A stretch of 64,000 bases of DNA from Nitrosopumilus sp. GTDB taxonomy: Archaea; Thermoproteota; Nitrososphaeria; Nitrososphaerales; Nitrosopumilaceae. Of this stretch, positions 13,205 through 40,887 are shown one piece after another. A program made the position numbers and the translations under genes. Position 1 is the first letter of the stretch; each line of letters begins with the position of its first letter. The notes beneath the pieces were generated by a model that saw nothing but the letters and a program-made list of their open reading frames with translations, made no database searches and was not told where the DNA came from. Location of the stretch: assembly GCA_965207445.1 (NCBI GenBank), contig CBDBLX010000002.1, positions 1,783,849 to 1,847,848 of the forward strand. The letters run 5' to 3'.

Positions 13205-16093
13205 TTACAGTGACAGAATTTGCATTATCTCAGACTTTACAGATTCAACTGCCAAGTCCCGTTTATCAGAGTTTGGACCACCTCCTTTAGAGAGTGACAT
13301 ATTATTTCCACTAGAACCACCACCAAGTATATCCGCGGCCAGTGCAGTAAATTTAGACGCATCAATACCACATGTTATTGCCTTAGGCCCTACATAAGAC
13401 ACGACACGCGTGGTAGGCCCTGATGTAAAAAAACCCACGTATGCTGAGTTTGGTACATGTTTTGTCAATAGTTTACCAAGACTCATGTGAAAGCGTTCAT
13501 CACGATCATAGTCTGTTAACATACAGATCTTGATGAAGTGCGTATTTGTAGTGTTTGTAGATTGATTGCCAGTTGTTATATCAGCAGTAGCAACATTATT
13601 GTCATTGTCATCATTGGGGTGATGGGGGTAGTTGGTGTGATTGGTGTTGTTGTTATTGTTATTGTGATTTGTATCACTATTACTAAAAGCATCAACATAA
13701 GATACAAACACAGCAACACCACCTACATCATGTATACCACTTGCAACATTTGATATACGATTTACTAGATCAGGTACAAGTTCGCGAGTAGTCTCTCTTT
13801 CTAGTTCACGTCGTTTGAGAGTCTCCTCACGTTTTGTTTCTGCTACTCTTTGTTCCTTTGCTACATATTTTTGTTTTTCATCATATAATGTGGCAACATC
13901 ACCAGAAACAAATTCAATTCTCACTACACCATCTTGAATGCGCTTTGTACGAGTGATTCGAATCTTTTGTATCTTGCCAGTACTCGATACATGTGTACCA
14001 CCACACGCTTCGATATCCTTATCAGATATTGATACGATACGAACTGCCTTTACAGGGACTATACCTCCCTGATATATGCGAAATCCATATTTCTGCTCTG
14101 CATCACCTCGCTCCATATACTGTATGGAAACTGCAAGATCATCGCGTATCATCTGATTTGCAGTATCCTCAATCTCCTTTACTTGTAATGTAGATAAAGG
14201 TGAGTGGTGTGTGATATCAAGTCTAGCGTGATCAGCATCTTTGAATGCAGAGTGCTGCCATACCCACGACCCTAATACGTGACGTGACGATGCATTGATG
14301 ATATGAGTTGATGTATGATGTTTTGTAATTGCATCCCGGCGACTCTTATCAATTATACAGTGTACGCGCTCACCTACAGATACTGTACCGCTTTTGAGAA
14401 TATGTACAATTATGTTTGCGTGTTTTTCCACATCAATTACATCAAAATTGGCAATCGTCCCATGGTCTGGTTCCTGCCCACCACCGCGTGCATAAAATGA
14501 CGTACGGTCAAGTACAACTTTATTGTTCTCATACCACAGTACAGTAGCATCAAATTCAAAGGGGTCACTATTATAAAAGAGAAGTTCTGTATCAGGTATA
14601 TCATCAAGTGCAATCTCAGCAAGTGGTGCAATTTTACGTGATTGATGCAGTTCTGATATACGAGTATAAAACGCAGATGGCACCTCAGACAATACACCTT
14701 CATCTACCAAATATTCAGGTGTAATACCATCTGATTCATACAAGGTGACTAGTGTATTCATGTCCGGTGTTTGATTACGCTCGCGTACACGTGAGATCTT
14801 TTTTTGCATCTGTAAACGAGATTCCAAATACCTGTCACTTTCTATATGCAATATTTTTTTGACATCATCACGCTTGTCAATCAGCTCAGGATATGTATTA
14901 GCAAGATATGTAATATGTGCATCTACTATATCATCTACATCAATTAAATGTGATGCGGCACGTAGTTTATGAATACGCTCATTTACTCGTCTAATCATCA
15001 TGCGCAAATTATACCCACCACCCACATTGCTTGGTAGAGCACCATCTGCAATTGCAAATATCAAAGTACGTAAATGATCAGCTATCATATATACATCCTC
15101 AAGGGGCGTTATGATATTTGATGCCATCTGCTCTGAGATCCCAGTAGTGCTCAATGATTTTTTCCTAACAGTCCACAAGTCATCAGAGCGCTCCAGCATC
15201 TTTGCCACACCAGTATAGTACTCTTTTAGCATATGTGCATCAGCATCAAAACCTATGGCATCCTTGAGGAGAGTATCGACTTGGTTGCCAAAACAACAGT
15301 CGTATGCAGTTGGCGTTCCCATCGTAATCCATGCAAAACGTTCCAACCCAGCACCCATGTCAATTATACGATTATCAAGTGTTGTATGATTCTCTAGCGT
15401 TCCTTGAAACTCGGTAAACACTGCATTTCCCAACTCTAAACCACGCACAAAATACTCTAGTGATGGTCCAAACGAGCCACCGCCTGCCCACACATCCTCT
15501 ACAAATACGATCTCAGCAGGGTTTATGCCAAACCTACGTGTCAATAGTTCATAGTCAAGTCGTATACATTCGTCTTTCCAGTATCCACCTTTTATGTCAG
15601 GAATACAGTGTTGTCCTACCATACAAAAGCTCGAAAAGTGACGTCCCGTAACACCCACATTCTCCAAATCTTTGAATCGCAGACAGGTCTGTGGTACCAC
15701 AAGTGGGTTTGCAGGAAACTCAAAGACTACCTTTGATCCCATTACTCTCTGAAAGTCTACAATCGATGCAATGGTAAAATATAGATCATCACGCCATCTA
15801 CACACAACAGGATATCTTCCAATTATGTCATGTTTGTTTTCTGAGAAAAAAGAGCTTATCTGCTTCCATGATTCAGTATAGTCAAATCGTTTTTTAGTCG
15901 GTGGATCACCGATAAATGAATATGTGTCAGGTGCATCATCAGGACAATCAACTCTATCAGGGTCAAGTGTCCAAAAGAAACGACCACATGTACGGCAAGA
16001 CTTGCGCGTGAATCCAGAGTCCTCAAAGAGATCAACAGTATAGTAACGTTGTGGTTCTGATGAGAATTTTTTGAGGATTTCGTTTTTTTCCAA
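13205..16093 (-). CDS. alaS: Alanyl-tRNA synthetase (archaeal type)
   Basis: RYPVVCRWRDD, VGVTGRH, GLELGN, IDMGAGLER, HTSTH...EACGGTH editing motifs. Confidence 0.97.
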   Translation of the reverse strand: MEKNEILKKFSSEPQRYYTVDLFEDSGFTRKSCRTCGRFFWTLDPDRVDCPDDAPDTYSFIGDPPTKKRFDYTESWKQISSFFSENKHDIIGRYPVVCRWRDDLYFTIASIVDFQRVMGSKVVFEFPANPLVVPQTCLRFKDLENVGVTGRHFSSFCMVGQHCIPDIKGGYWKDECIRLDYELLTRRFGINPAEIVFVEDVWAGGGSFGPSLEYFVRGLELGNAVFTEFQGTLENHTTLDNRIIDMGAGLERFAWITMGTPTAYDCCFGNQVDTLLKDAIGFDADAHMLKEYYTGVAKMLERSDDLWTVRKKSLSTTGISEQMASNIITPLEDVYMIADHLRTLIFAIADGALPSNVGGGYNLRMMIRRVNERIHKLRAASHLIDVDDIVDAHITYLANTYPELIDKRDDVKKILHIESDRYLESRLQMQKKISRVRERNQTPDMNTLVTLYESDGITPEYLVDEGVLSEVPSAFYTRISELHQSRKIAPLAEIALDDIPDTELLFYNSDPFEFDATVLWYENNKVVLDRTSFYARGGGQEPDHGTIANFDVIDVEKHANIIVHILKSGTVSVGERVHCIIDKSRRDAITKHHTSTHIINASSRHVLGSWVWQHSAFKDADHARLDITHHSPLSTLQVKEIEDTANQMIRDDLAVSIQYMERGDAEQKYGFRIYQGGIVPVKAVRIVSISDKDIEACGGTHVSSTGKIQKIRITRTKRIQDGVVRIEFVSGDVATLYDEKQKYVAKEQRVAETKREETLKRRELERETTRELVPDLVNRISNVASGIHDVGGVAVFVSYVDAFSNSDTNHNNNNNNTNHTNYPHHPNDDNDNNVATADITTGNQSTNTTNTHFIKICMLTDYDRDERFHMSLGKLLTKHVPNSAYVGFFTSGPTTRVVSYVGPKAITCGIDASKFTALAADILGGGSSGNNMSLSKGGGPNSDKRDLAVESVKSEIMQILSL

Positions 16094-16237
16094 GTGTTGG
16101 ACAGTTTGTCAATGTCATTATCGTCAATTTATACGATTCTTGTTTAAAGTAGTGTGTTGTATGGTATCAATTCAGGTCAAATCGGCAGTCAGAAACGGTA
16201 CCGGGATTTTGCTATGGGCGGCAAAACGAAAGATGTA

Positions 16238-16423
16238 TTAAACTAAATGCGCGCTTAATTTAATCCTGAAACGAAAAGAGCCTGGCAGGGTCTCACTTCT
16301 TTCTGCTACTGTCAGTCCAAAAAACAAGGCCAGATTGTCTACAAGATTCTTCGTGTGAATCGGTTTGTCATCCGACAGGGACTTTAACGGTAGGAGCATT
16401 ATGTCAAACAGTGAGGGAATCAA
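16238..16423 (-). pseudogene. Mrr restriction endonuclease N-terminal winged-helix fragment, truncated by the left TIR
   Basis: MIPSLFDIMLLPLKSLSD...LVDNLALFFGLTVAERSETLPGS resembles the Mrr_N consensus; ORF then runs into the TIR. Confidence 0.7.
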
Positions 16424-16684
16424 GTAACGCGCATTCCGGATTGGGTGGTTTTAAATTATTCTAGAGGTTTGTGACTATGGACAGATATTGAATACTTGTA
16501 TTCCGTGATTCGTGTTTGGCAGATGGTCTCAAGAGTTTACAAGCGTCCAACCTCTTGCGACACTAAGCATATCGATATGATTAAAGATCCGATATTTTGA
16601 TTGATGTTCATCTCGAAGTTGAGCACATATTATGAATACAAAATATTAGAAAACTATCGGATCTTTAATGAAACTATTAAACAT

Positions 16685-18139
16685 CTAGATCTTTGCGATG
16701 ATCTCGTCGAGGCTTATCGGGACATATCCTATATACTCGGAGCAAACGTTGATCGTTTTGTTTCTTCTGTTGATGTGAGGGTATGTAACAGGATGGGTGT
16801 TGTGCTTGGCCCCGTGTATGATCCACCCGTCCCAGTATGGCGGCCTGTAAGGATCGTGCATCAAAAGAAATTCGAAGCCTCTGTACCTTATGGGAAATCT
16901 GTCCTTTATCACCTCTGCTTTCGTAATAGCGTCGGTGTCGCGGTTTCCTCGTATGAAGCGCACTTCGCCGTTTAGCTTTGAAAGCCAAAAGTCTATGGAT
17001 CTTCTTTTTCTCCCATGTGTAATATCGCCTAGGTAATACACTCTGTCGCCCTCCCCCACTCTACTGTTCCAGTTGTCGACCAGTATGCGGTTCATCTGCG
17101 GAGTGGACGAGAATGGCCTCCTGCAGCGCCTTATAATGCTTGTATGATCGAAATGCAGGTCACTAAGCACGAAAACAGTCCCATGGCGTCTGCTTTCGTC
17201 TGTGAAACGCAGACGTTTTCCTGCATTTGTGGCAGATCTTTTCACCATCTTCTCAAAAGCCAACATCGTCTCCTTGAATAATGTCATGTCGAGCGCCTCG
17301 CGCCTGCTGAGCATTCTCCGGAGTATCAAGTCATACTCGCATACTATCGTCCGGTTTTTACCGATCACGCTTACCCGCAACGCGTGCTGTTTATGATCTG
17401 GTAGCTTCCAACTTTCCAAAAATTCCAGTATTCTACCAAATTCTCTCTTGATTCCGTCCTCTGTTTTCTCCGACAGATCCGTGTCGAGGCATATAGTAGC
17501 ATGGGGTTTAAAAGATCCTTTCAGATCGTATGCTTTGAGCTCGCAGAATCTACGAAGACTCTCGACGAGTTTTTGCTGCATTTCCTTCAATTCAGCTGAT
17601 GGAAGTACACGCGCGTGTACGGCACGTCCCGGAAACTCACCAAAATCGCCAAGGCGGAAGCTCACCAGATCATAATCTTTTACTACGTTCTGCACGGTGT
17701 CTATGAGATCTTTCTGGTTCGATGTACTTAATTCTCCCATTATGGTGATATGTGGGACGTACCTGAATTTGCTTTTGATGTCAAAGTTTATCTTTATGGC
17801 CTTTACAAGATCCCTGAGTTTCTCGTTTAGTCGCCCTCCGACCCGGATCTCTACCAAATATTTTTCGGATGTGAGATGGCCGCCGTCGAGACTATTTCGG
17901 GTACCGTTCTTGATCGCGGTTCTAGATTTTCTAGTCCTTACACGCGGACTGGTGCCTGTTGTTTTGGATGCTGAAAATCGATCGACTTGTTTTCTGTTGG
18001 CGCGAGTTTTCCGTGTGTGAACATATGAAATATGGCGCTTGTGTGTAGTCCGCACCGTGCGTTTGTGTCCATATGTTGCACTTTGAGAATGATTTGGATC
18101 CGTGTGATGTACATCCATATCTGTGCTGATGAATGACAC
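16685..18139 (-). CDS. 2H phosphoesterase (2'-5' RNA ligase-like) fused to a calcineurin-like metallophosphoesterase
   Basis: PHITI and PHATI HxT motifs; SDLHF, LGD, GNRD, MHDP, HGAKH; basic N-terminal extension, start uncertain. Confidence 0.85.
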   Translation of the reverse strand: MSFISTDMDVHHTDPNHSQSATYGHKRTVRTTHKRHISYVHTRKTRANRKQVDRFSASKTTGTSPRVRTRKSRTAIKNGTRNSLDGGHLTSEKYLVEIRVGGRLNEKLRDLVKAIKINFDIKSKFRYVPHITIMGELSTSNQKDLIDTVQNVVKDYDLVSFRLGDFGEFPGRAVHARVLPSAELKEMQQKLVESLRRFCELKAYDLKGSFKPHATICLDTDLSEKTEDGIKREFGRILEFLESWKLPDHKQHALRVSVIGKNRTIVCEYDLILRRMLSRREALDMTLFKETMLAFEKMVKRSATNAGKRLRFTDESRRHGTVFVLSDLHFDHTSIIRRCRRPFSSTPQMNRILVDNWNSRVGEGDRVYYLGDITHGRKRRSIDFWLSKLNGEVRFIRGNRDTDAITKAEVIKDRFPIRYRGFEFLLMHDPYRPPYWDGWIIHGAKHNTHPVTYPHINRRNKTINVCSEYIGYVPISLDEIIAKI

Positions 18140-18514
18140 ACTTCTTAAAAATACCTAATTCTGTAGTGCAGTCTCGAAACGATTGAGGATACGGGTATCG
18201 AATTTACTCCCATAATGAGGGCCGTTATTATGAGAAGGGTGAATAGGAATTGGCGCGGAAGCCTCTCTGACGGGGACTAGGTCTGCTATTAAAAAAAGAC
18301 ATTTGCATCTAATTGATTTTTCATTAGATGGAGGAAAGTGTCGACGATATGCATACGTTGTGGGACAAACCACTGTATGCTGCGGCATGTGTGAATGCGC
18401 CCCGGTTTGTTCTCCACATTTGACGCGTCGGAAATACATTCCTGTATGTTTGCGCCAATTCTGTGCCTCATCCAGTAGCGCACGTTGCTATACGTTGCCT
18501 AGTTCATCCACGGG

Positions 18515-20878
18515 CTACGCGGCTTTTCTCTTCGATATCCGCGCTATCTCTTTCCGTATGATGTCTTGGTCAATCGCGTCCAGATCCCGGTTGACTGCGA
18601 GCCGTGCGGAAGCTTCAATCGCGTCCTTGATGATGTCGGCGCATGAAAACCCGTCGGTTAGTTCCGCCAGCTGCTCAAAGTCGACGCTCTTGTCGTACGG
18701 GCGGTTCATCAACCCTATCTCAAACAGTGACTTGCGGGCCTCAAAGTCCGGAGGGGGGACATATATTTTCTTGTCAAATCTGCCGGGCCTCAAGGCAGCA
18801 GGGTCCATCCTGTCGACGTAGTTTGTCGCGCCGACCACCAGTATCCTCCTCTCGGCTGCGTTGTTGAGCTGCATGAGAAACTCGTTGACCTCCTCCTCCT
18901 TGTAGGTACTCATGTGGAAAGTCTTCGACCTGCTGGGAATCAGCCCGCTGATCTCATCAAAGAAGATTATTGCAGGCGCGCTCTCTTGAGCCGTCGAAAA
19001 CGCGCGTCCTATGTTGCCGACTGCACCGTGTATGTAGGGCGTTGCAAGATCCGAATGCGCCACCTCAAAGAAATTATAGTTTAGTTCCTCGGCCAGCTTT
19101 CTGACCATAAACGTCTTGCCGCAGCCAGGTGGGCCGTATAGGAGTATGCCATTGGGTATGGTAACCTTGAATTTTTCAAATTTCTCCGGGTGCTTGAGCG
19201 GATTTATCACGTCGGATATCAGGAGATTTTTTAGTTCCTTCATGCCGGCGACGCCTTCCAAGCCCCTTGAACAGGCATCATTACTACCGTTTTCCGCGCG
19301 CGGCCGGGATCGTAGCGCGGGTTGTACGTGGTGGCGATTCGCACTTATTTTTTTGGATATCCGCGCTATCTCTTTCCGTATGATGTCTTGGTCAATCGCG
19401 TCCAGATCCCGGTTGACTGCGAGCCGTGCGGAAGCTTCAATCGCGTCCTTGATGATGTCGGCGCATGAAAACCCGTCGGTTAGTTCCGCCAGCTGCTCAA
19501 AGTCGACGCTCTTGTCGTACGGGCGGTTCATCAACCCTATCTCAAACAGTGACTTGCGGGCCTCAAAGTCCGGAGGGGGGACATATATTTTCTTGTCAAA
19601 TCTGCCGGGCCTCAAGGCAGCAGGGTCCATCCTGTCGACGTAGTTTGTCGCGCCGACCACCAGTATCCTCCTCTCGGCGGCGTTGTTGAGCTGCATGAGA
19701 AACTCGTTGACCTCCTCCTCCTTGTAGGTACTCATGTGGAAAGTCTTCGACCTGCTGGGAATCAGCCCGCTGATCTCATCAAAGAAGATTATTGCAGGCG
19801 CGCTCTCTTGAGCCGTCGAAAACGCGCGTCCTATGTTGCCGACTGCACCGTGTATGTAGGGCGTTGCAAGATCCGAATGTGTCACCTCAAAGAAATTATA
19901 GTTTAGCTCCTCGGCCAGCTTTCTGACCATAAACGTCTTGCCGCATCCAGGTGGGCCGTATAGGAGTATGCCATTGGGTATGGTAACCTTGAATTTTTCA
20001 AATTTCTCAGGGTGTTTGAGCGGATTTATCACGTCGGATATCAGGAGATTTTTTAGATCCTTCATGCCGGCGACGCCTTCCAAGCCCCTTGGACCGGCAT
20101 CACCACCGCGTATTTCAGTACGCGTCAGAGACTGTCGGGATCGCCGCTCTTGCGGGCCCGTGGCGTCTCTGCGACCTTTCCTGTGATTCCGGTCCAGTTT
20201 TGTGTGCGGGCGCGGGTTGCGCCGGCGTGTCTCTGGGCCGGCATACAAATCTCTGGGCCTTGTGGGTGTGACGCCATGCCCTGTCAAATACGTGAAGACT
20301 GGTTTTTTGTCACGATATAGAACCAGTTCGGGTGTGGTATCTTCGTGTTTCATCTCCAAGGATTCAATATCTCCGCTTATATCCTTGAATCGCTTACCGG
20401 TGTTGCCGACAGCCAACGTAACGTAAAACTCAAAATCATCCCCGCTACTGTGATCGTACTTTGTTGCTTGGGCGTTAGGAAGCAACGCCTGTGCAATGTC
20501 GTATCTCATCTGCTTCAATGATTCGTTGGGTTTTATTTTGATGGTTATGGCACCGCGGTCTCGTGCAAGTCGCTTGCTATGGACGCGTGATGATAACCCG
20601 TCTGTTGAGAATCTTGCATCGGGGTGTGTCTCAATCACTGCAATTATCACATCTATTATCTGTCGTTCCATCATACGCGTTGAGAACGGCCCGAATAGGG
20701 AAATGTATGGGAACCTCCTTTCCTTGTCTGAAAGAATTTCTTGAACGTATTGCATGTGTCTCTGCGCATCACGCCGCAAGTCACCGCGCAGTCTGATTCC
20801 AACTAACCAGGGTACTTCTCTTGTGGTTTGCACGGTCAATCTATTCGTATGACAATAATTAATGTTTATGAGTAGCAC
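18515..20878 (-). CDS. Degenerate 2H domain fused to two tandem AAA+ ATPase domains (Cdc48/FtsH-like clade)
   Basis: 2x GPPGCGKT, IIFFDE, ATNYVDRMDPAALRPGRFD; N-terminus homologous to 21339-22589 but with YISL/YVTL replacing HITL/HATL. Confidence 0.88.
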   Translation of the reverse strand: MLLININYCHTNRLTVQTTREVPWLVGIRLRGDLRRDAQRHMQYVQEILSDKERRFPYISLFGPFSTRMMERQIIDVIIAVIETHPDARFSTDGLSSRVHSKRLARDRGAITIKIKPNESLKQMRYDIAQALLPNAQATKYDHSSGDDFEFYVTLAVGNTGKRFKDISGDIESLEMKHEDTTPELVLYRDKKPVFTYLTGHGVTPTRPRDLYAGPETRRRNPRPHTKLDRNHRKGRRDATGPQERRSRQSLTRTEIRGGDAGPRGLEGVAGMKDLKNLLISDVINPLKHPEKFEKFKVTIPNGILLYGPPGCGKTFMVRKLAEELNYNFFEVTHSDLATPYIHGAVGNIGRAFSTAQESAPAIIFFDEISGLIPSRSKTFHMSTYKEEEVNEFLMQLNNAAERRILVVGATNYVDRMDPAALRPGRFDKKIYVPPPDFEARKSLFEIGLMNRPYDKSVDFEQLAELTDGFSCADIIKDAIEASARLAVNRDLDAIDQDIIRKEIARISKKISANRHHVQPALRSRPRAENGSNDACSRGLEGVAGMKELKNLLISDVINPLKHPEKFEKFKVTIPNGILLYGPPGCGKTFMVRKLAEELNYNFFEVAHSDLATPYIHGAVGNIGRAFSTAQESAPAIIFFDEISGLIPSRSKTFHMSTYKEEEVNEFLMQLNNAAERRILVVGATNYVDRMDPAALRPGRFDKKIYVPPPDFEARKSLFEIGLMNRPYDKSVDFEQLAELTDGFSCADIIKDAIEASARLAVNRDLDAIDQDIIRKEIARISKRKAA
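18534..20091. repeat. Near-identical 736-bp direct repeat (18534-19269 and 19356-20091)
   Basis: 822-bp offset; only a handful of substitutions visible. Confidence 0.93.
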
Positions 20879-21338
20879 GAATGCATGATCAAGCCGGAGT
20901 CATTCAACGCGGGATAATTTGACTAATCCACCCGTTGGAATGACCTACAATCTCTAAATTTTGTCCTCTGACCATATCTGTATACAATACACGGGCGTGG
21001 CTTCTGTCATTAGGGTGGGTTGAGCAGCCCGGCCAAATATTGGACACCTGCCAAGAATAATCAGGACGCTTTCTAGAGCACGAACAGACGTTGTAACCAT
21101 CAAGATTTAGAGCCGGATCTCGTAGTGACATCTGGGAGGGAAAGACATGGCAAAGGACACAGATAAGAAATTGCGGATAAGATTGCCGTGCCTGTGAGAG
21201 TGGTCTCAGTTTTGAAGTACACTCTCACGTAGTATTCTGCGTATATCAATAGACTTTATGGCATGGTCTACATTGGAGTGTCGCGTCATGTGACATGGTT
21301 TTCTGTGTAAAAAACTGGCCCATGCAATTCACGCACCT

Positions 21339-22589
21339 TTATTCGGAGATCTTTGCAATGATCTCGTCAAGGTTCATTGGAGCGTATTTGGTATATTCTA
21401 CACAAACGTTCACCGTCTTGTTTCTTTTGTTAATGTGGGGGTATGTAACAGGATAGTTGTTGTGCTTGTCTCCGTGTATGACCCACCCGTCCCAGTCCAG
21501 TGTTCTGTCAGGGTCGTGCATCAAAAGAAACTCGTAGCCGTCATACTTTATGAGAAATCTGTCCTCTATGACCTCTGCCTTTGTAATGACGTCAGTGTCG
21601 TGGTTGCCGCGTATGAACCGTATCTCGCCGTTCAATCTAGAGAGCCAAAAGTCAATTGGTCTGTTTTTTCTTCCGAATGTCATGTCGCCTAAATAATATA
21701 CCCTGTCGTCTTTCCTTACCCTGTCATTCCAATTACTGATCAGTGTGTGGTTCATATCATAGACGGATCTGAACGGCCTGTCACTGTATTTTATGATGTT
21801 TTTGTGGTCAAAATGCATGTCACTGACCACAAAAATACTTCCTCTACGCCCACTCTCGTCTGTGAATTGGCGAGCATCGTAACTCGGCTGGTTTATCTTC
21901 AACAGACGCAGGAGCCGCCCCAGATTCGTGGAGCGGAATTGGCGAGCATCGTAACTCGGCTGGTTTATCTTGGGATCGTCATATAAATTCCGAGGCCTTA
22001 CTGGCGTAACATCATGTCCTACAAGATATGTAAAAACCGGGGACTGCTCACTATACAAAATCAGCTCCGGCTCGATGTTTTCGTGCTTGAATTCATGCGA
22101 TTTGAGTTCTTTGTTTATATCCTTGAAGAGTTTTCCTGTCCTGCCGATCGCTAACGTGGCGTGAAACTTGAAGGCGTTCTTTCCATCCCGATCATACTCC
22201 GACGCTTGAGAGTGCGGCAACAGTTCTTGCGCAATGTCATACCGCATTTGTTTTAGATCTTCATTGGGTATTATTTTGACCATTATAATGCCACGGCCCT
22301 CAGAAAACAATTCACTATTATCAAATGATGAAAATCCGTCTGTTGAGAATCTTGCTTCTGAATATTTCTTGGCCATGCTGATTAACGTGTTTATTATATG
22401 TCGTTCTGCCATGTGCGTAGAAAATGGCCCGAACAGTGTAATGTGTGGAAAACGCCTCTTCTTGTCACGAAAATCATGCTGAACTTCTTTCATGTAGTAT
22501 CGTACATCGGATCGAAGGTTGCCGCGCAGTCGTATGCCAATCAGCCACGACTCTTTTCCTCTACTGGCGCGCATACCAACATCATACAT
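21339..22589 (-). CDS. 2H phosphoesterase fused to a calcineurin-like metallophosphoesterase (motifs intact)
   Basis: PHITL, FHATL; SDMHF, LGD, GNHD, MHDP, HGDKH. Confidence 0.88.
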   Translation of the reverse strand: MYDVGMRASRGKESWLIGIRLRGNLRSDVRYYMKEVQHDFRDKKRRFPHITLFGPFSTHMAERHIINTLISMAKKYSEARFSTDGFSSFDNSELFSEGRGIIMVKIIPNEDLKQMRYDIAQELLPHSQASEYDRDGKNAFKFHATLAIGRTGKLFKDINKELKSHEFKHENIEPELILYSEQSPVFTYLVGHDVTPVRPRNLYDDPKINQPSYDARQFRSTNLGRLLRLLKINQPSYDARQFTDESGRRGSIFVVSDMHFDHKNIIKYSDRPFRSVYDMNHTLISNWNDRVRKDDRVYYLGDMTFGRKNRPIDFWLSRLNGEIRFIRGNHDTDVITKAEVIEDRFLIKYDGYEFLLMHDPDRTLDWDGWVIHGDKHNNYPVTYPHINKRNKTVNVCVEYTKYAPMNLDEIIAKISE

Positions 22590-22618
22590 GCATCAATAAT
22601 TAACATTTAGGTACAACC

Positions 22619-22771
22619 GAGGTTGGTGCGTAATTGACATTAGTCCTGCCTGTGACCCTTCTATGAGATTATTGAATAATTTAATTTATACATATAAAAC
22701 TCTGGTGATATTTGCAGATGACTTTGCAAGTACGATGCAGGTGGCGATTTGATGAATTACGCACCAACCTC
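22619..22771. mobile_element. 153-bp MITE with 17-bp TIRs and a 9-bp target duplication
   Basis: GAGGTTGGTGCGTAATT / AATTACGCACCAACCTC; GGTACAACC at 22610-22618 and 22772-22780. Confidence 0.88.
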
Positions 22772-23150
22772 GGTACAACCATAGTAACTGTTCATCTCAT
22801 GTGACCGCATCCAGAGATGGACGTATAAGATGTACTTGGATTCGGGAAGGTGAACAACTGCCAATCCCGTACACAAAAGACAACCACTGGATCCGCCAGA
22901 ATCGCGCTGGTGTCAAAGGCCGTCACAGGTGACCCAAACTGTTTATGCAACCCCGCAGACCGCCTCTGGCATTGCTTCACCAGACCTCTAACCTGCCCGA
23001 GATTTTGCCGACGTGGTTGCCATCATACATAAAGCAGATCTTAGGTCCGGCTACGGCCGACTGCAAGGCGTGATTGTCGCGGACAAGATTTCAAGTTGGG
23101 GTTCTGATGAGTGTCTAACACGTTGGTCACTGCTGTGTTGTGTTGCCATA

Positions 23151-23900
23151 TCATTCACCGGGTCGTCCGCTCCAGTACGCTTCCCCCTCTGCGGCGGTGG
23201 CGCACTTGGCCCCGAACAGGTCGTTATTCACGCCGAGAAATATGCATACACCACCGTCGCACGCGGTTGCCCCTCCGGTGTGTGACGGGTACAGTAGATT
23301 GAACCTGTGGCCCTTGCTGTCCATCCAGATGTCTGTCGCCTCGTTGGGTCCCATGTGGTCTACACCTTCTACCCACGCCAAGTTCTCCGCCACCTGCTCG
23401 TGCGTGGCAAAGCCGTATTCGCCTTTCATGGTGTATGGACAGGTCCCGGTGTACGGGTTCACGTGGTCGTGGTAGTCGTACTCCAGAGTGTCGTGGACAC
23501 GGGCAAGTGCAAGATTGTATGCCCTTGCATCGAACGCGATCTGATGTCTGTCATGTTCCGCGCGTATGCCGTTGATATATTCTAAGTTGGCCCTTGATTC
23601 CTCCTCTGCAGTGTAGAATACGGGATCAAGTATTCCGGGCCATTCCAGTATGCCACCTACTCCTCCTGTCTCGGAAGCGTTGTCAGCCGTGCCGAACATG
23701 TGAGGCTTGTATCGGTCAGAGAACCATTCAATTCCATACATGATACCCCAAATTACAGCAGTGGCAATTATACTAAATATGATGAATTTGCCGATCCCAG
23801 ACATGATGCCGCGTGTGCGGCCGCCCCTACGATATCGCCGCCTCCGTGGCTTCCCGCGTCTGTTGCGCCGTGGTTCTCCCCCGAAAGTGTTGCGACGCAT
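23151..23900 (-). CDS. Membrane-anchored CAP (SCP/PR-1) domain protein
   Basis: Arg-rich N-terminus, TM helix, YINGIR, VAENLAW, WMDSKGHRFNLL. Confidence 0.85.
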   Translation of the reverse strand: MRRNTFGGEPRRNRRGKPRRRRYRRGGRTRGIMSGIGKFIIFSIIATAVIWGIMYGIEWFSDRYKPHMFGTADNASETGGVGGILEWPGILDPVFYTAEEESRANLEYINGIRAEHDRHQIAFDARAYNLALARVHDTLEYDYHDHVNPYTGTCPYTMKGEYGFATHEQVAENLAWVEGVDHMGPNEATDIWMDSKGHRFNLLYPSHTGGATACDGGVCIFLGVNNDLFGAKCATAAEGEAYWSGRPGE

Positions 23901-24388
23901 GGCCCCTCATTTCAGGCAGAATCCTGAGTTATTGTCATAATACTGATGACAGAATCTTGTCATGTCACACCTCTCGGAGTCTTCGATAAATGCCTTTGGG
24001 GGCTTTGCACCTGATAGTCTGCGCCACGGTCGTGCGCGCACACTATTCATGATTACTTTGGACCGTTTTCGTTTCAGGATTAAATTAAGCGCGTACTTAG
24101 TTTAACACATCTTTCGTTTTGCAGCCCATAGCAAGGTCACGGTATCGTTTGTGACTGCCGATTTGACCTGAGTTGATACTGGTGTATAATTCGTAAATTT
24201 AGACTATGAGGTCGTGTCCATGTGCTGAGCCGTATAACTTAGACACTCTGCTATTTGAGCCACTTACACACCAAATATTTTTCATTTATTTTGGAATTAT
24301 AAATAATGTGTTTTAGTTTGTTAATGTTGAGAGTCAAATAACTATCATACATACTCAACATATTAAACATAGAACAATTTACTATAGA

Positions 24389-24901
24389 TTGATGTTTAGT
24401 AAGAAAACAAAGTTAGATGAGGGAACCAACATATTCTCTGTAAAGAAGAATGATGGGTTCAACGACTTTATCTTTGGAACCGTAACAGGAATCAAAGGCA
24501 GAAAGGTAGGAGTCAACGGCATAATTGTAAATCCTGTGGGACTCAAAAACAAGCTTGCTCAAGGAAAGACTGGCCAAAGATCAAAAGAGATACTAGAGAA
24601 TCCAACACCAGACAACATAGTATTGGCACTCATATACAGAGTTGAGTATGAGAACTTTACAGACATACTAGACCTAGATGAAGATAAATGTGACATAATT
24701 CCACCGAGAATATATCTAATGTTAGATGGTTGGGTACGTGAGTCCTTGCCAGAATTAATCAACAAAGTTCTCTCATTGCCACCAGGTCCAGAAAGGGATG
24801 ATGCAAAACGAGTATTGCGACTCAGAATGGACACATTAACAGACAAGCATCTAAAAAGAACACTATATTCAGTATGCAGAAGTCTCAAGATACTCAACTA
24901 G
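24389..24901 (+). CDS. Hypothetical protein, 170 aa
   Basis: Long clean ORF with host-like codon usage, resuming the core region after the right TIR. Confidence 0.75.
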   Translation: MMFSKKTKLDEGTNIFSVKKNDGFNDFIFGTVTGIKGRKVGVNGIIVNPVGLKNKLAQGKTGQRSKEILENPTPDNIVLALIYRVEYENFTDILDLDEDKCDIIPPRIYLMLDGWVRESLPELINKVLSLPPGPERDDAKRVLRLRMDTLTDKHLKRTLYSVCRSLKILN

Positions 24902-24918
24902 AAATCATAATTTTGGCA

Positions 24919-25158
24919 GTAACCGTTCAACTTATTCCCAAATTTAGGCACAGATTCATTGCCTAACATCTGGAGCAGGTACGGGGATTTAACGGCTACA
25001 TTTTGGCTCCGGGGCAGGACTACATATGACCCTCCTGCGTAGGAGTGGGTACGGGGATTTAACGGCTACATTTTGGCAGTAACCGTTCAACTCATTCTCA
25101 AGTTTAGACACAAATTTATCACCTAACGTCTGGCACAAGTACGGGGTTTAACTGTTAT
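24919..25158 (+). mobile_element. Tandem cluster of ~80-bp MITEs (24919-24999, partial 25049-25069, 25079-25158)
   Basis: GTAACCGTTCAAC starts; TTTTGGCA at 24911-24918, 25071-25078 and 25159-25166. Confidence 0.85.
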
Positions 25159-25207
25159 TTTTGGCACTCGCATAGTTTTATATTATCTACATAAAGTGCG
25201 TTGATAC

Positions 25208-25516
25208 ATGGAATACGTCTATGCTGCACTATTACTTCACAAACTCAAAAAAGAGGTTAATGAGGAAAGTGTTAGTTCCGTCGTAAGGGCATCAGGTGCA
25301 GAGGTCAACGAAGCACAAGTAAAGTCCCTAGTTGCAGCACTAGCAGATGTTGATATTGATGAAGCCGTAAAAGCAGCACCAGTGGCTGTGGCGGCTACAG
25401 CAGCACCAGTGGCTGACGAATCTGCTACAAGCGATGCACCAAAAGAAGAGGAAAAGAAAGAAGAAGGTAAGACAGAAGAGGCCGCAATGGAAGGACTCTC
25501 ATCACTCTTTGGATAA
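25208..25516 (+). CDS. rpl12: 50S ribosomal stalk protein P1/L12
   Basis: MEYVYAALLLH...Ala-rich hinge...EGLSSLFG. Confidence 0.97.
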   Translation: MEYVYAALLLHKLKKEVNEESVSSVVRASGAEVNEAQVKSLVAALADVDIDEAVKAAPVAVAATAAPVADESATSDAPKEEEKKEEGKTEEAAMEGLSSLFG

Positions 25517-38362: not shown

Positions 38363-40887
38363 GTAAGCGTTCAGGTCTAATTATTGATGATCATAAATAG
38401 GCACGCGTGTTCCGACCACATAGCACATAGCACGATATTAAATACACAGATAACATTTATAAGGAGATATCGCTATTTGTCATTGTCGAACAAAAATGAC
38501 AAATAGAAACATCAACAATGCAATATTGCACAATGGGAATTTAACCATGATACATGCGATCAGATGGGAGGTGCAAGTGTGATGCCTTTAGAGATTGATC
38601 GCATACGTGCCGAAAGAGATGCGGCGTACCGCACGATTGGTGAATTAAACGACAAGGTTGTAGGATTGTCTGATACGATTGGCTATATGAAAGAGAGAGA
38701 TGTTGCATTAAATCAAGACATGGTTCGTTTGCGCAATGATAATGCAAAGTTAAATCAAGAAAAGACAGCAGTTGAGAATTTGTTCAAGAGTGCAATGGAG
38801 GTGGTGGTGGAGACCATATTAGGTCTTGTAGCAAAAATTCAAAACAAAGACGAGTTGGCAGAGAGATTAAAGGTAGAATTATCAGGACTGCAACAAAAAT
38901 TTGCAATAGAATATGGATATAATGGCAGTCCATCCAAATCCAAGCCATATGGTGACAAACGTGCAAAGTTTCAAAAAGAACTTGCAACTCACCTGACCAA
39001 AAAGCGTAACGAGTCTGTGAGCAGCAGTGACACGAACAGTGGGGATGTGACAAGTGAGGATAGCGATCTGTTACAAAAACTGCCAAAAAACCCCGGAGGC
39101 CAACCAGGTCATGTTGGCAAGTCACGTGAGGGCAAGTGCGAGAAGACCATACTTTTTAAAGTTGGATTGAGTGCATGTTGTGGCAGAGCAGACATGATTC
39201 AGGGTTCGTGTGTGCGCAAAAGAGTGTTTGGCCAAGATGTCGATGGAGTATGGCGTACTCTGATGTACGTGTGGTATCATGAAATATGCCCACAATGCGG
39301 TCAAGAATACGTACCTGATACAGATGCCATCAGCGGATCTGCATTTTTGGTAAATGAGCGTGCATTGATAAACATGTACAACAACGGCGGCACTAGTGTA
39401 CGTACTGCACAAGGTTACATCAAAGATAGAGAACACCTGCACATATCGATCGGTGCCATGTCAAACTGCGTCAGTGCAACTGCAAATTTAGTTGATAGTC
39501 GAATTATACACTCGCCAATTGAAAAACCACTTGTAATCGATGAAGATGACTTGCGTATATGTCGGATGCCTATTGAGCCTGCAGGCGGTTGGAAAGTGGG
39601 CAAGGGTGCAGACATTTTAGATGATTATGATGCAGATGACCGTACTAGAGAGAACACGTATGCACAAAGCGAGGCACTACAAACTCGTTACAGTACAGTC
39701 TGGACATCATCTGTCACACAACCCCAAAACGTGCATATCATGGAAGTGGCATCCATGCAGCCATACAGTAAAAGCGACGAGTCACCGCACAAAGTCAAAA
39801 AAGACAACATACAGATGCTAACTGCCAATACAAACAAAACAGAGCATTACAAGGCAGTAGAACACAAGTATACAGCTGAGATGCAGATGTTTCTAGAGTG
39901 GGGCACAAACAGACCAAATGTTCGTGACGGATACCAAGGATACTCTTGGCACAACTTTGATTTTCAACGATGTACAGTACACATATCGCGCAAAGTAGAA
40001 GATGCTGCAATGGACAATGAGTTTGATTCTCCAGAATGCACCAGACACATACTTCTCAGTGAGATATTTGCAGATGCCAAAACAAGTGCAAAATCATTCA
40101 CCGCATATGCCGGGGGCCCAATGCAGAGCGCATGTGACCTAAACATCATAAAAGAAAAAGGATTGGATCAATCCGTACAACAAACAATAGCCCAACTCTT
40201 GGCAAAATATGACAAAGCATCAAACATGATAGAGGACACGGCTGCCACTACACTGAAAAATGCAAGAGAAAATGTATTTACAGGCATCAAATACCCCGGA
40301 GTCCCACTACACAACAATGACACAGAGCATAATGTACGTGATGTCCTTGTGTCCAAAAGCAAAAGAAAAGGACCATTTCCAAACTGGACTGCAGCACGCA
40401 ACTTTGGCAGACTGCAGACATTCTTTAGAACTTGTAGAAAAAACGGAACATCTGCATATGACGCGATCATCAAAATGTCTGCAGATAAGTCTTGGGACAT
40501 CTTCACCTCTGGAATACCTCCGCCGATAATGATAAACACCAAGCAATCTACTGAAGACAGTATACGTCCGTAACTATCAAAGTATGATTGCAAGGAATTC
40601 CACGGTTTCATGCGGACTCTACGTTGCCGCACGACATGTCATAATATGACTAAATAACAAAAATTTATTCATCTCCATGGTCAACTTACCTGCATCATTT
40701 AATCACAACACCTAAAGTTTGACATCATATCAACTGCTAAAACTTACATGGCTCACAATTCGGTTTATCGCACCCATCACCTTACATCTAGACACACTCG
40801 ATTCTGGATTATCCTCTGTGATATCATTAATTGACCCGTGCTGGCGTGCCTGCTTATGATCATCAATAATTAGACCTGAACGCTTAC
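38363..40887 (+). mobile_element. IS66-family insertion sequence (single-ORF, ISBst12-like)
   Basis: TIR GTAAGCGTTCAGGTCTAATTATTGATGATCATAA at both ends; no target duplication seen. Confidence 0.9.
38564..40573 (+). CDS. IS66 transposase (669 aa)
   Basis: Coiled coil, PGGQPGH, Cys cluster, SDES, RDGYQGY, QRCTVH, HNNDTEHNVR. Confidence 0.88.
   Translation: MGGASVMPLEIDRIRAERDAAYRTIGELNDKVVGLSDTIGYMKERDVALNQDMVRLRNDNAKLNQEKTAVENLFKSAMEVVVETILGLVAKIQNKDELAERLKVELSGLQQKFAIEYGYNGSPSKSKPYGDKRAKFQKELATHLTKKRNESVSSSDTNSGDVTSEDSDLLQKLPKNPGGQPGHVGKSREGKCEKTILFKVGLSACCGRADMIQGSCVRKRVFGQDVDGVWRTLMYVWYHEICPQCGQEYVPDTDAISGSAFLVNERALINMYNNGGTSVRTAQGYIKDREHLHISIGAMSNCVSATANLVDSRIIHSPIEKPLVIDEDDLRICRMPIEPAGGWKVGKGADILDDYDADDRTRENTYAQSEALQTRYSTVWTSSVTQPQNVHIMEVASMQPYSKSDESPHKVKKDNIQMLTANTNKTEHYKAVEHKYTAEMQMFLEWGTNRPNVRDGYQGYSWHNFDFQRCTVHISRKVEDAAMDNEFDSPECTRHILLSEIFADAKTSAKSFTAYAGGPMQSACDLNIIKEKGLDQSVQQTIAQLLAKYDKASNMIEDTAATTLKNARENVFTGIKYPGVPLHNNDTEHNVRDVLVSKSKRKGPFPNWTAARNFGRLQTFFRTCRKNGTSAYDAIIKMSADKSWDIFTSGIPPPIMINTKQSTEDSIRP

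Follow-up and report, generated by a model that had tools for sequence, protein, structure and literature searches.

An 8-kb transposase-less cargo unit between two inverted IS66-family left ends in a Nitrosopumilus genome

We analysed a 64,000-nt stretch of the genome of Nitrosopumilus sp. (GenBank assembly GCA_965207445.1, contig CBDBLX010000002.1), hereafter called the window, which corresponds to C2:1783849-1847848 of a 2.6-Mb genome in two contigs. At positions 16164-24179 of the window, between alaS and the gene at 24389, lies a unit of 8016 bp. This unit is very probably a non-autonomous cargo transposon, bounded by two inverted left ends of one insertion sequence (IS), here named ISx, and moved in trans by an IS66-type transposase. 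Its assignment to the archaeal mobile insertion cassettes (MICs) or to the decayed composite transposons is well supported. An earlier reading of the window, made from the sequence only, had proposed among other possibilities a composite of two identical element ends, and both ends were indeed found to be the same (left) end of one IS66-family element, in inverted orientation.

Ends, target duplication and empty sites of the unit

A repeat search recovered the long, imperfect inverted repeats reported in the sequence-only reading, as two arms of 114 nt (16164-16277 and 24066-24179) that were 91% complementary and separated by 7788 nt. In pairwise alignment, both arms opened sharply at GTATCA. 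All sizeable open reading frames (ORFs) inside the unit lay on the minus strand. The repeats had also been described as bracketing exactly a GC-rich block; their outer ends coincided exactly with the allelic empty site presented below, but the GC content rose only from ~17000 (0.45-0.57 from there to 24000, versus 0.37-0.44 outside), and a stretch of ~500 nt adjoining the left arm on its inner side was not GC-rich.

Both arms are ISx left ends facing outward, in inverted order, with truncated inner sides. The left arm was 93.1% identical to the ISx copy at c750951 (over 116 nt; nt 1-115 of this copy, called e750, matched the left arm at 93.9%). The right arm extended further into ISx, taking in the 5' end of the transposase gene (~13 codons), whose ATG start codon had become ACG. 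The two arms were 89.7% identical to each other and thus less alike than the left arm and the c750951 copy; the termini were therefore probably never identical, in keeping with their derivation from two separate ISx copies.

At the left junction, ISx sequence (to nt 114-116) was followed by a 286-nt spacer, by a miniature inverted-repeat transposable element (MITE) of 113-116 nt and by the stop codon of the first cargo gene. The spacer (16278-16563) had no match in the genome beyond itself and none in three related loci described below (L048-L050), at word size 7. A 61-aa ORF reaching into it (16238-16423, minus strand) gave a weak Mrr_N match (Pfam E 0.0028, below the cut-off). At the right junction, ISx (...AAAGCC) passed into the cargo (CCCAAAGGCATTTAT...) across a short patch of similarity. 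This junction is a microhomology-type fusion and lies 35 nt upstream of a reading frame conserved in the cargo. The MITE at 16564-16679 belongs to a family of 106-116 nt with 19-nt terminal repeats and ~80 genome copies (92-99% identity), in which the whole unit, middle included, is kept alike across copies. A small RNA or riboswitch was rejected as an explanation of the arms: with Rfam at E <=1 over 15500-25500, three weak matches were obtained, all far below gathering scores and none in the arms.

As the sequence-only reading had stated, there was no transposase inside the unit. No transposase family was found among its ORFs by Pfam (eight ORFs) or by NCBIfam and PADLOC (seven ORFs), and the transposase of the IS66-like element resident in the window gave no tblastn match within genome positions 1800012-1808027, which correspond to the unit. 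Moreover, Pfam and NCBIfam revealed no integrase or other recombinase, no Cas1 and no PolB among the ORFs of this island.

The unit interrupted a copy of a repeat family, here called R. The left flank (16150-16162) corresponds to the first 13 nt of R, so the insertion took place within an R copy, 8 nt of which were duplicated. The flanks read ...TAGTG TGTTGTAT G (unit) TGGTGTAT AATTCG..., and R copies read TAG[C/T]G-like, then TGTTG[C/T]AT, then AA[T/C]TCGTAAATTTA. The degenerate 8-bp duplication proposed earlier was thereby recovered, with an offset of 1 nt; a match of at least 7/8, with each side allowed an offset of 0 or 1, occurred with a frequency of 0.0023 among 200,000 random pairs of window positions. 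R itself counted ~28 copies of 350-800 nt, starting with TAGCGTGTTGCATAA[C/T]TCGTAAATTTATAC, which contains a TATA-box-like motif, followed by a small Cys-rich reading frame (an example is C2:981137-981930). Some copies formed arrays on contig C1 with a spacing of ~760 nt, and the copy hit by the unit was a diverged one.

Empty sites were observed at two levels. Among paralogous sites, all 23 of the other R copies displayed carried TGTTG[C/T]AT once and uninterrupted. At the allelic level, four sequencing runs of one sample (X1-X4) contained the window stretch, with shares of 0.94-0.96, and contigs assembled from X2 (3363 nt, depth 10.8) and X3 (2729 nt, depth 34.8) joined position 16157 directly to 24183. 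These contigs covered 15600-16157 and then 24183-24289, skipping 8025 nt (8016 + 8 + 1), whereas the counterpart contigs of X1 and X4 entered the unit (15600-16265). The implied empty allele reads ...AAAGTAGTG TGTTGTAT AATTCGTAAATTT. Only 5 nt were common to both sides of the joint, too few for an assembly artefact at k = 31, so that real reads are needed to account for it. The left flank of the empty-site contig showed no difference over 558 nt; the right flank showed three substitutions and two indels over 107 nt.

The unit's insertion between alaS and the gene at 24389, which encodes 170 aa, also held when related genomes were considered: these two genes were divergent neighbours in five of five same-genus genomes, separated by 76, 81, 81 and 233 nt in four of them and by 4.3 kb of unrelated genes in the fifth (G096). 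Empty forms of the site were thus seen in related genomes as well as among the alleles of the sample. The single 8-mer duplicated over the outer ends, the empty allele and the 23 uninterrupted R paralogues together argue for an insertion in one piece. In G096 (C1:82000-90000), the spacer held genes for a histidine kinase, a glucose/sorbosone dehydrogenase, a DUF6659 protein and an alcohol dehydrogenase, i.e. 4.3 kb of ordinary genes, which indicates that the site varies in other ways too.

ISx, the parent of the arms, and other IS66-like elements

A genome search for further copies of the arms returned four solo copies, one of which belongs to the frameshifted ISx copy e750. Together with the two arms, the 114-nt unit was present in six copies, all beginning with GTATCA and preceded by unrelated DNA, with the first ~36 nt nearly invariant. 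The five copies other than the left arm had ~190 nt in common, three of them ~330 nt and two ~420-480 nt.

The copy e750 (c750951-753249; 2299 bp) carried a 106-nt MITE inside and ended at 753249 with an 18-nt inverted copy of the terminus (89%), the left and right ends of ISx sharing only ~19 nt. Its frameshifted gene matched the resident IS66-like transposase in pieces (tblastn, E 6.7e-46), and a 100-aa piece of it matched seven longer metagenomic proteins (266-645 aa) with 54-68% identity, two of which had a precomputed assignment to PF03050, the IS66 (TnpC) transposase family. The alignments of the proteins P0121, P0123 and P0127 to e750 spanned nt 145 to ~2180 and were split into six or more frame pieces (E 4e-102 to 5e-133); P0123 (PF03050) aligned over aa 1-626 with 47-61% identity (E 5e-133) and P0127 (PF03050) with E 1.6e-128. 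One of the e750 frames held an in-frame stop, and none of the four stop-free pieces of the pseudogene gave a Pfam match alone. Judging from these alignments, ISx is a single-ORF IS66-family insertion sequence of ~2.2 kb, with a predicted transposase starting from nt 145.

In canonical IS66 elements, tnpC is preceded by two accessory genes, tnpA and tnpB. In ISx, the transposase relatives aligned from nt 145 on, which leaves no room for tnpA and tnpB and fits the single-ORF (ISBst12-like) subgroup. A small ORF with a CxxCxGxG motif (DnaJ_CXXCXGXG, E 0.003) was considered as a gene family combining a conserved promoter and a small zinc finger; this was rejected, as the ORF is the N-terminus of the ISx transposase.

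All ISx copies were broken or partial: e750, 1053143-1053873, 1700954-1701581, 853604 (316 nt), 1303979 (203 nt) and 1228854-1230289. Intact ISx-like transposases occur in other metagenome sources. No partner end was present within 15 kb of the solo copies c853604 or c1303979. The latter, a 203-nt left end (C2:1303979-1305026), lay ~110 nt upstream of a restriction endonuclease gene of the MvaI/BcnI family (PF15515, E 3.7e-43), in the same direction.

One of these copies bounds a second transposase-less unit, at C2:1228854-1230289 (1436 bp), flanked by a perfect 8-bp duplication (ATCAAATA). It contained a frameshifted fragment of an SDH-type ClpP-like protease (PF01972, E 5.8e-10) with a long C/G homopolymer run, and two inverted-repeat units of ~80 nt with GTAACCGTTCAAC-type ends. 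With the 8-kb unit, it makes two cassettes of one kind, this one being the smaller.

The resident IS66-like element of the window was present in four full-length copies with 94-100% amino-acid identity; the copy at 855991 consisted of two overlapping pieces, the other three being uninterrupted. Its transposase matched PF03050 (E 1.8e-10; 41.2 bits, above the Pfam cut-off of 23.1 bits) and NF033517 (E 6.1e-22; 78.2 bits, below the NCBIfam cut-off of 180 bits). Three of the four copies were flanked by perfect 8-bp duplications (CAAATATC, AGTGTTAT and ATATATAC). The copy at 38363-40887 had no target duplication (ATTGAAAC versus TGTTTATC), which may mark a rearrangement between copies.

IS66-family terminal repeats usually start with 5'-GTAA. 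In this genome, the ends started with GTATCA... (ISx), GTAAGCG... (resident element), and GTAACAG... and [G/C]AAGCGTTCA... (two other IS66-like lineages). The sequence-only reading had likened the arms to the resident end at 38363, which reads GTAAGCGTTCAGGTCTAATT. This likeness was recovered by eye at 14/20 positions for the left arm and 13/20 for the right arm, with nothing similar beyond nt 20; the arms, however, derive from ISx and not from the element at 38363. ISx and resident ends shared GTA and a core, TCAGGTC.AAT, at an equal distance from the terminus. ISx-type and resident transposases were ~32-34% identical (32% for P0121). At least three further IS66-like transposase lineages, of 549, 659 and 714 aa, were observed in the genome (e.g. 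C2:333490-335136, C2:1281033-1283177 and C2:652763-654742), with differing ends (GTAACAGTTCAACCCC and [G/C]AAGCGTTCACCCCC). A third IS66-like lineage as the helper of the unit was rejected, as its ends (GTAACAGTTCAACCCC) are less like those of ISx than the resident ends are.

Cargo of the unit and its genomic setting

The cargo ORFs and the other features of the unit are listed in Table 1. Three of the six ORFs encode 2H-phosphoesterase paralogues, two of them with a phosphatase-like domain. The 484-aa and 416-aa proteins were 46% identical, the C-terminal part of the former being homologous to the phosphatase-like part of the latter, and the 484-aa gene was 83% identical to L048 at the nucleotide level. 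For the second domain of the 416-aa protein, the PF12850 match (E 2.3e-5; 24.9 bits) was below the cut-off of 27, and relatives of this protein carry PF12850 or PF00149.

For the 787-aa protein, PAN/CDC48/FtsH-like and IetA-like matches were obtained, none of which reached the curated cut-offs. Its two AAA+ modules were 98.5% identical in DNA sequence over 750 nt (18531-19280 versus 19353-20102), pointing to gene conversion or to a duplication of recent date. In L048 and L050, the homologues were two-module proteins as well. Short-read contigs broke at this repeat, and every run was without cover over one copy. With PADLOC, the cargo gave generic AAA+ matches only (IetA, 2.7e-58; TRIP13) and no known defence system.

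Upstream of the CAP gene, a zinc-ribbon-like frame (~23963-23907, minus strand) stopped at a TGA; L048 and L049 have TGC at this place, and their frame runs on into the CAP protein. The CAP gene of the unit may be truncated N-terminally and restart at 23900. The segments flanking the MITE at 22618-22771 were only 9 nt apart in L049, indicating that this MITE interrupts the cargo. Its halves recurred ~1.6 kb apart at many loci, which suggests that they are the ends of a full-length IS.

Among 2788 candidates, 188 relatives of the 416-aa protein were found at E <=1e-5. The closest were unnamed metagenome proteins (67-81% identity), and those with names were "2'-5' RNA ligase family" proteins of Nitrosopumilus and Nitrosotenuis (36-40%). 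This fusion of 2H and phosphatase domains was present in only one of four same-genus genomes, and the three matches in the genome itself all lay inside the unit. Species-representative genomes provided six loci, of which the three close ones (74-77% amino-acid identity) were records of Nitrosopumilaceae metagenome-assembled genomes (MAGs), L048-L050, with locus GC contents of 0.54, 0.49 and 0.59. The cargo DNA was 82-87% identical to these loci from 16689 to 23996-24001, where ISx homology begins. Neighbours in the MAG loci included a VWA protein, an Hsp70-like protein, further CAP proteins, and IS630- and IS110-type transposases; none of the three loci showed an ISx end. By its GC content and these comparisons, the cargo is of foreign origin, with relatives in GC-rich Nitrosopumilaceae. 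From its domain content, it appears to be accessory and is possibly a conflict-related nucleotide- or RNA-phosphodiesterase module.

The genes of the window were archaeal, among them those of the ribosomal proteins L10P, L12, L11, L19e and L32e and of Spt5. This setting, that of an ammonia oxidiser of the Nitrosopumilaceae, agrees with the record titles of the closest cargo relatives, which name Nitrosopumilus and Nitrosopumilaceae. Same-genus genomes are mostly 1.2-2.2 Mb, versus 2.6 Mb for the present, repeat-crowded genome.

Table 1. Features of the 8-kb unit, its flanks and the resident IS66-like element (window positions)
Feature	Position	Strand	Description
Left target copy	16155..16162		TGTTGTAT; within the first 13 nt (16150..16162) of the interrupted R copy
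Extra G	16163..16163		Between target copy and unit terminus; absent from the empty allele
Left arm	16164..16277	+	ISx left end, nt 1-114; non-coding terminus and promoter-like region
Spacer of no known relative	16278..16563		286 nt between left arm and MITE
Secondary MITE	16564..16679		113-116 nt, own inverted repeat; secondary insertion
2H phosphoesterase (2'-5' RNA ligase superfamily), 484 aa	16685..18139	-	PF13563, E 1.8e-12
Cargo ORF, 94 aa	18155..18439	-	No family match
2H phosphoesterase (N-terminal) with two classical AAA+ modules, 787 aa	18515..20878	-	PF00004, E 5.3e-66 (two stretches); PF13563, E 1e-6
Cargo ORF, 75 aa	20904..21131	-	No family match
2H phosphoesterase with calcineurin-like phosphoesterase-like domain, 416 aa	21339..22589	-	PF13563, E 4.6e-12
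Second MITE, within cargo	22618..22771		154 nt, perfect 20-nt terminal repeats
CAP/SCP-domain protein, 249 aa	23151..23900	-	PF00188, E 2e-7
Right arm	23991..24179	-	ISx left end, nt 1 to ~185-190, inverted; 24066-24179 pairs with left arm
Right target copy	24180..24187		TGGTGTAT; one change versus left copy and R consensus
Rest of interrupted R copy	24180..24264	+	24 further loci match from 24180 or 24187, 74-83%
Resident IS66-like element	38363..40887	+	2525 bp, 44-nt terminal repeats, one 669-aa transposase ORF

Mobilisation of the unit and relation to known elements

In the favoured scenario, an IS66-type DDE transposase supplied from elsewhere would bind the two outward ISx left termini (GTATCAAYTCAGGTCAAATC...), make an 8-bp staggered cut in the R copy between alaS and the next gene, and insert the whole unit. 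The architecture would then be the remnant of a composite transposon with inverted ISx copies, left ends outward, that lost both interiors, or equivalently a mobile insertion cassette; ~7.3 kb of foreign genes would have been captured between the termini, and two MITEs would have inserted later. As for the enzyme, the candidates are the transposase of ISx itself, acting before its decay or from another replicon, and the resident IS66-like enzyme, whose ends are alike at 13-14/20 positions. Mobilisation in trans by an IS66 transposase, as advanced by the sequence-only reading, thus follows from the anatomy of the unit, with both enzymes as candidates. IS66-type elements may move either by cut-and-paste or by copy-out-paste-in.

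Several observations weigh against this scenario. The target duplication is imperfect (7/8, plus one extra G), and the divergence of the arms probably means that they already differed at insertion or that the unit is old. The assembly contained no intact ISx transposase, all three places matching P0121 at ISx-level identity being broken or fragmentary, and the resident IS66-like ends match the arms at only 13-14/20 positions. The ISx end was found in 0/120 genomes of the family, 0/400 genomes of the class and, as an exact pattern, in no JGI metagenome contig. Movement of the 8-kb unit between sites or genomes was not seen twice, and no second insertion of it is known. Finally, the sequence evidence consists of contigs and not of reads, from four runs of one sample, probably the source of the assembly itself, and the differences in the right flank mean that the empty contig comes from a co-occurring strain and is not a demonstrated excision.

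The alternative that fared best concerns the source of the enzyme and is compatible with trans mobilisation of an ISx-ended unit: the resident IS66-like element, and not the ISx enzyme, may have moved the unit by cross-recognition, which we consider possible but doubtful. The resident transposase is the only intact IS66-type enzyme here with closely similar termini; it is encoded by four full-length copies, with perfect 8-bp duplications at three of them, and its ends carry the TCAGGTC.AAT core at the same distance from the terminus as those of ISx. In addition, every ISx transposase copy is broken, the presence of the unit is still polymorphic in the sample, and the second ISx-ended unit without transposase (1228854-1230289) has a perfect duplication. 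On the other hand, only 13-14/20 terminal positions agree, there is no likeness past nt 20, and the transposases are only ~32-34% identical; the imperfect duplication and the 10% divergence of the arms also allow an old event, at a time when ISx was active. Somewhat less probable again is the extended version, in which the heterologous resident enzyme moved a still-segregating unit and thereby brought a conflict-system-like 2H-phosphoesterase/AAA+ module from GC-rich Nitrosopumilaceae into a GC-poor lineage.

It is improbable that the empty-site contigs reflect ongoing precise excision in the population and not an ancestral uninserted strain. Filled and empty forms occurred in one sample, the left flank was identical over 558 nt, and the cargo contigs were shallower than the flank in X1 (12.7-14.3 versus 18.9), X3 (19.8-27.6 versus 35.2) and X4 (22-27.8 versus 35.7). 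However, the flank depth of 11 in X2 fell inside the cargo range (9.1-13.8), contig depth is unreliable and GC bias could explain the gap, and the three substitutions and two indels in 107 nt of right flank point to a distinct haplotype. Excision would moreover have to delete the extra G and restore the consensus T, with no intact cognate transposase present. Contigs of the four runs included no circular or excised form, and contigs could not show rare forms.

Two independent ISx insertions flanking an island that arrived by another route, with an incidental inverted repeat and an empty allele lacking all three, are very unlikely: solo ISx left ends do exist elsewhere (c853604, and c1303979 by the restriction enzyme gene) and the arms are not each other's closest relatives, but each arm would need a duplication of its own, whereas one R 8-mer is duplicated across the outer ends and empty sites exist, both arms are truncated inside and face outward, and no integrase or recombinase was found in the island. 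The attachment site of an integrative element, or a casposon, was rejected, as there was no integrase or Cas1, the ends are inverted and not direct, and the duplication is 8 bp. Casposons carry a Cas1-type integrase and generate target duplications of ~14-15 bp; the unit differs from them by the absence of Cas1 and PolB among its ORFs and by its 8-bp duplication. It also differs from MITEs, which are well under 1 kb and non-coding, by its 8016 bp and six cargo ORFs.

The closest counterparts of an ISx-ended, trans-mobilised unit are the MICs, such as the IS231-ended MIC231 of Bacillus cereus, and transporter IS units, in which IS ends surround passenger genes. Like them, the 8-kb unit has IS-type ends around passengers (both arms being ISx left ends in inverted orientation), no inner transposase and a duplication of parent-IS length, 8 bp being also observed at 1228854-1230289 and at three resident copies. 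MICs are mobilised by a transposase in trans; for the 8-kb unit, such movement would follow from its anatomy. Unlike MICs, the unit has an archaeal host, an IS66-family parent, a 7-kb cargo with six ORFs, and two ends that both stem from the left end, giving a 114-nt repeat versus the ~19 nt of the parent.

Composite transposons such as Tn5 and Tn10 carry inverted IS copies. As in these, the same type of IS end faces outward at both sides of the unit, with the cargo between and one duplication over the whole; unlike in these, the flanking ISs are not two complete copies and are reduced to left ends of 114 and ~185-190 nt, without a transposase gene or inner ends. A figure legend in PMC10969869 describes Tn5. 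With the IS66 family, ISx and the resident element share a PF03050-related DDE transposase, termini beginning with GTA and 8-bp duplications; the 8-kb unit departs from the family by lacking a transposase, and ISx by its GTAT... termini and the absence of tnpA and tnpB.

Surveys of archaeal mobile DNA comprise insertion sequences, MITEs, casposons, proviruses and integrative elements. A search of the open-access literature for a later report of an archaeal composite or passenger-carrying IS transposon returned none. Krupovic et al. (2019) described IS-like transposons of one or two genes in thaumarchaea and stated that composite DNA transposons with passenger genes were undetected in archaea, thaumarchaea included; IS66 does not appear in the main text of that paper (PMC6563490). 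In the available text of a 2026 survey of archaeal ISs, "composite" and "passenger" do not occur, and "cargo" occurs in the reference list only (PMC13343696). Bartossek et al. (2012) suggested that two near-identical IS copies on a fosmid from a soil ammonia oxidiser could form a composite transposon able to move amoA and amoB (PMC3379541). In that case as in the present one, thaumarchaeal genes lie between two copies of one IS-like element; the fosmid case involved complete IS copies and, in the account consulted, no reported evidence of transposition, whereas the present unit has decayed ends with a target duplication and an empty site.

Elements of this kind, with IS ends around passengers and movement in trans, are well known in bacteria, and the 8-kb unit is a well-documented archaeal example from the IS66 family, with an empty site at the population level. 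It provides a concrete archaeal case, in an ammonia oxidiser, of genes moved by IS ends, with IS-derived ends, a duplication, both types of empty site, and foreign cargo with identifiable relatives. It also flags an uncharacterised set of 2H-phosphoesterase, AAA+ and CAP genes as mobile, accessory cargo, and offers a simple test case for cross-mobilisation between diverged IS66-type elements. If the heterologous resident enzyme did move the unit, dead IS ends would be reusable handles for gene capture in archaea.

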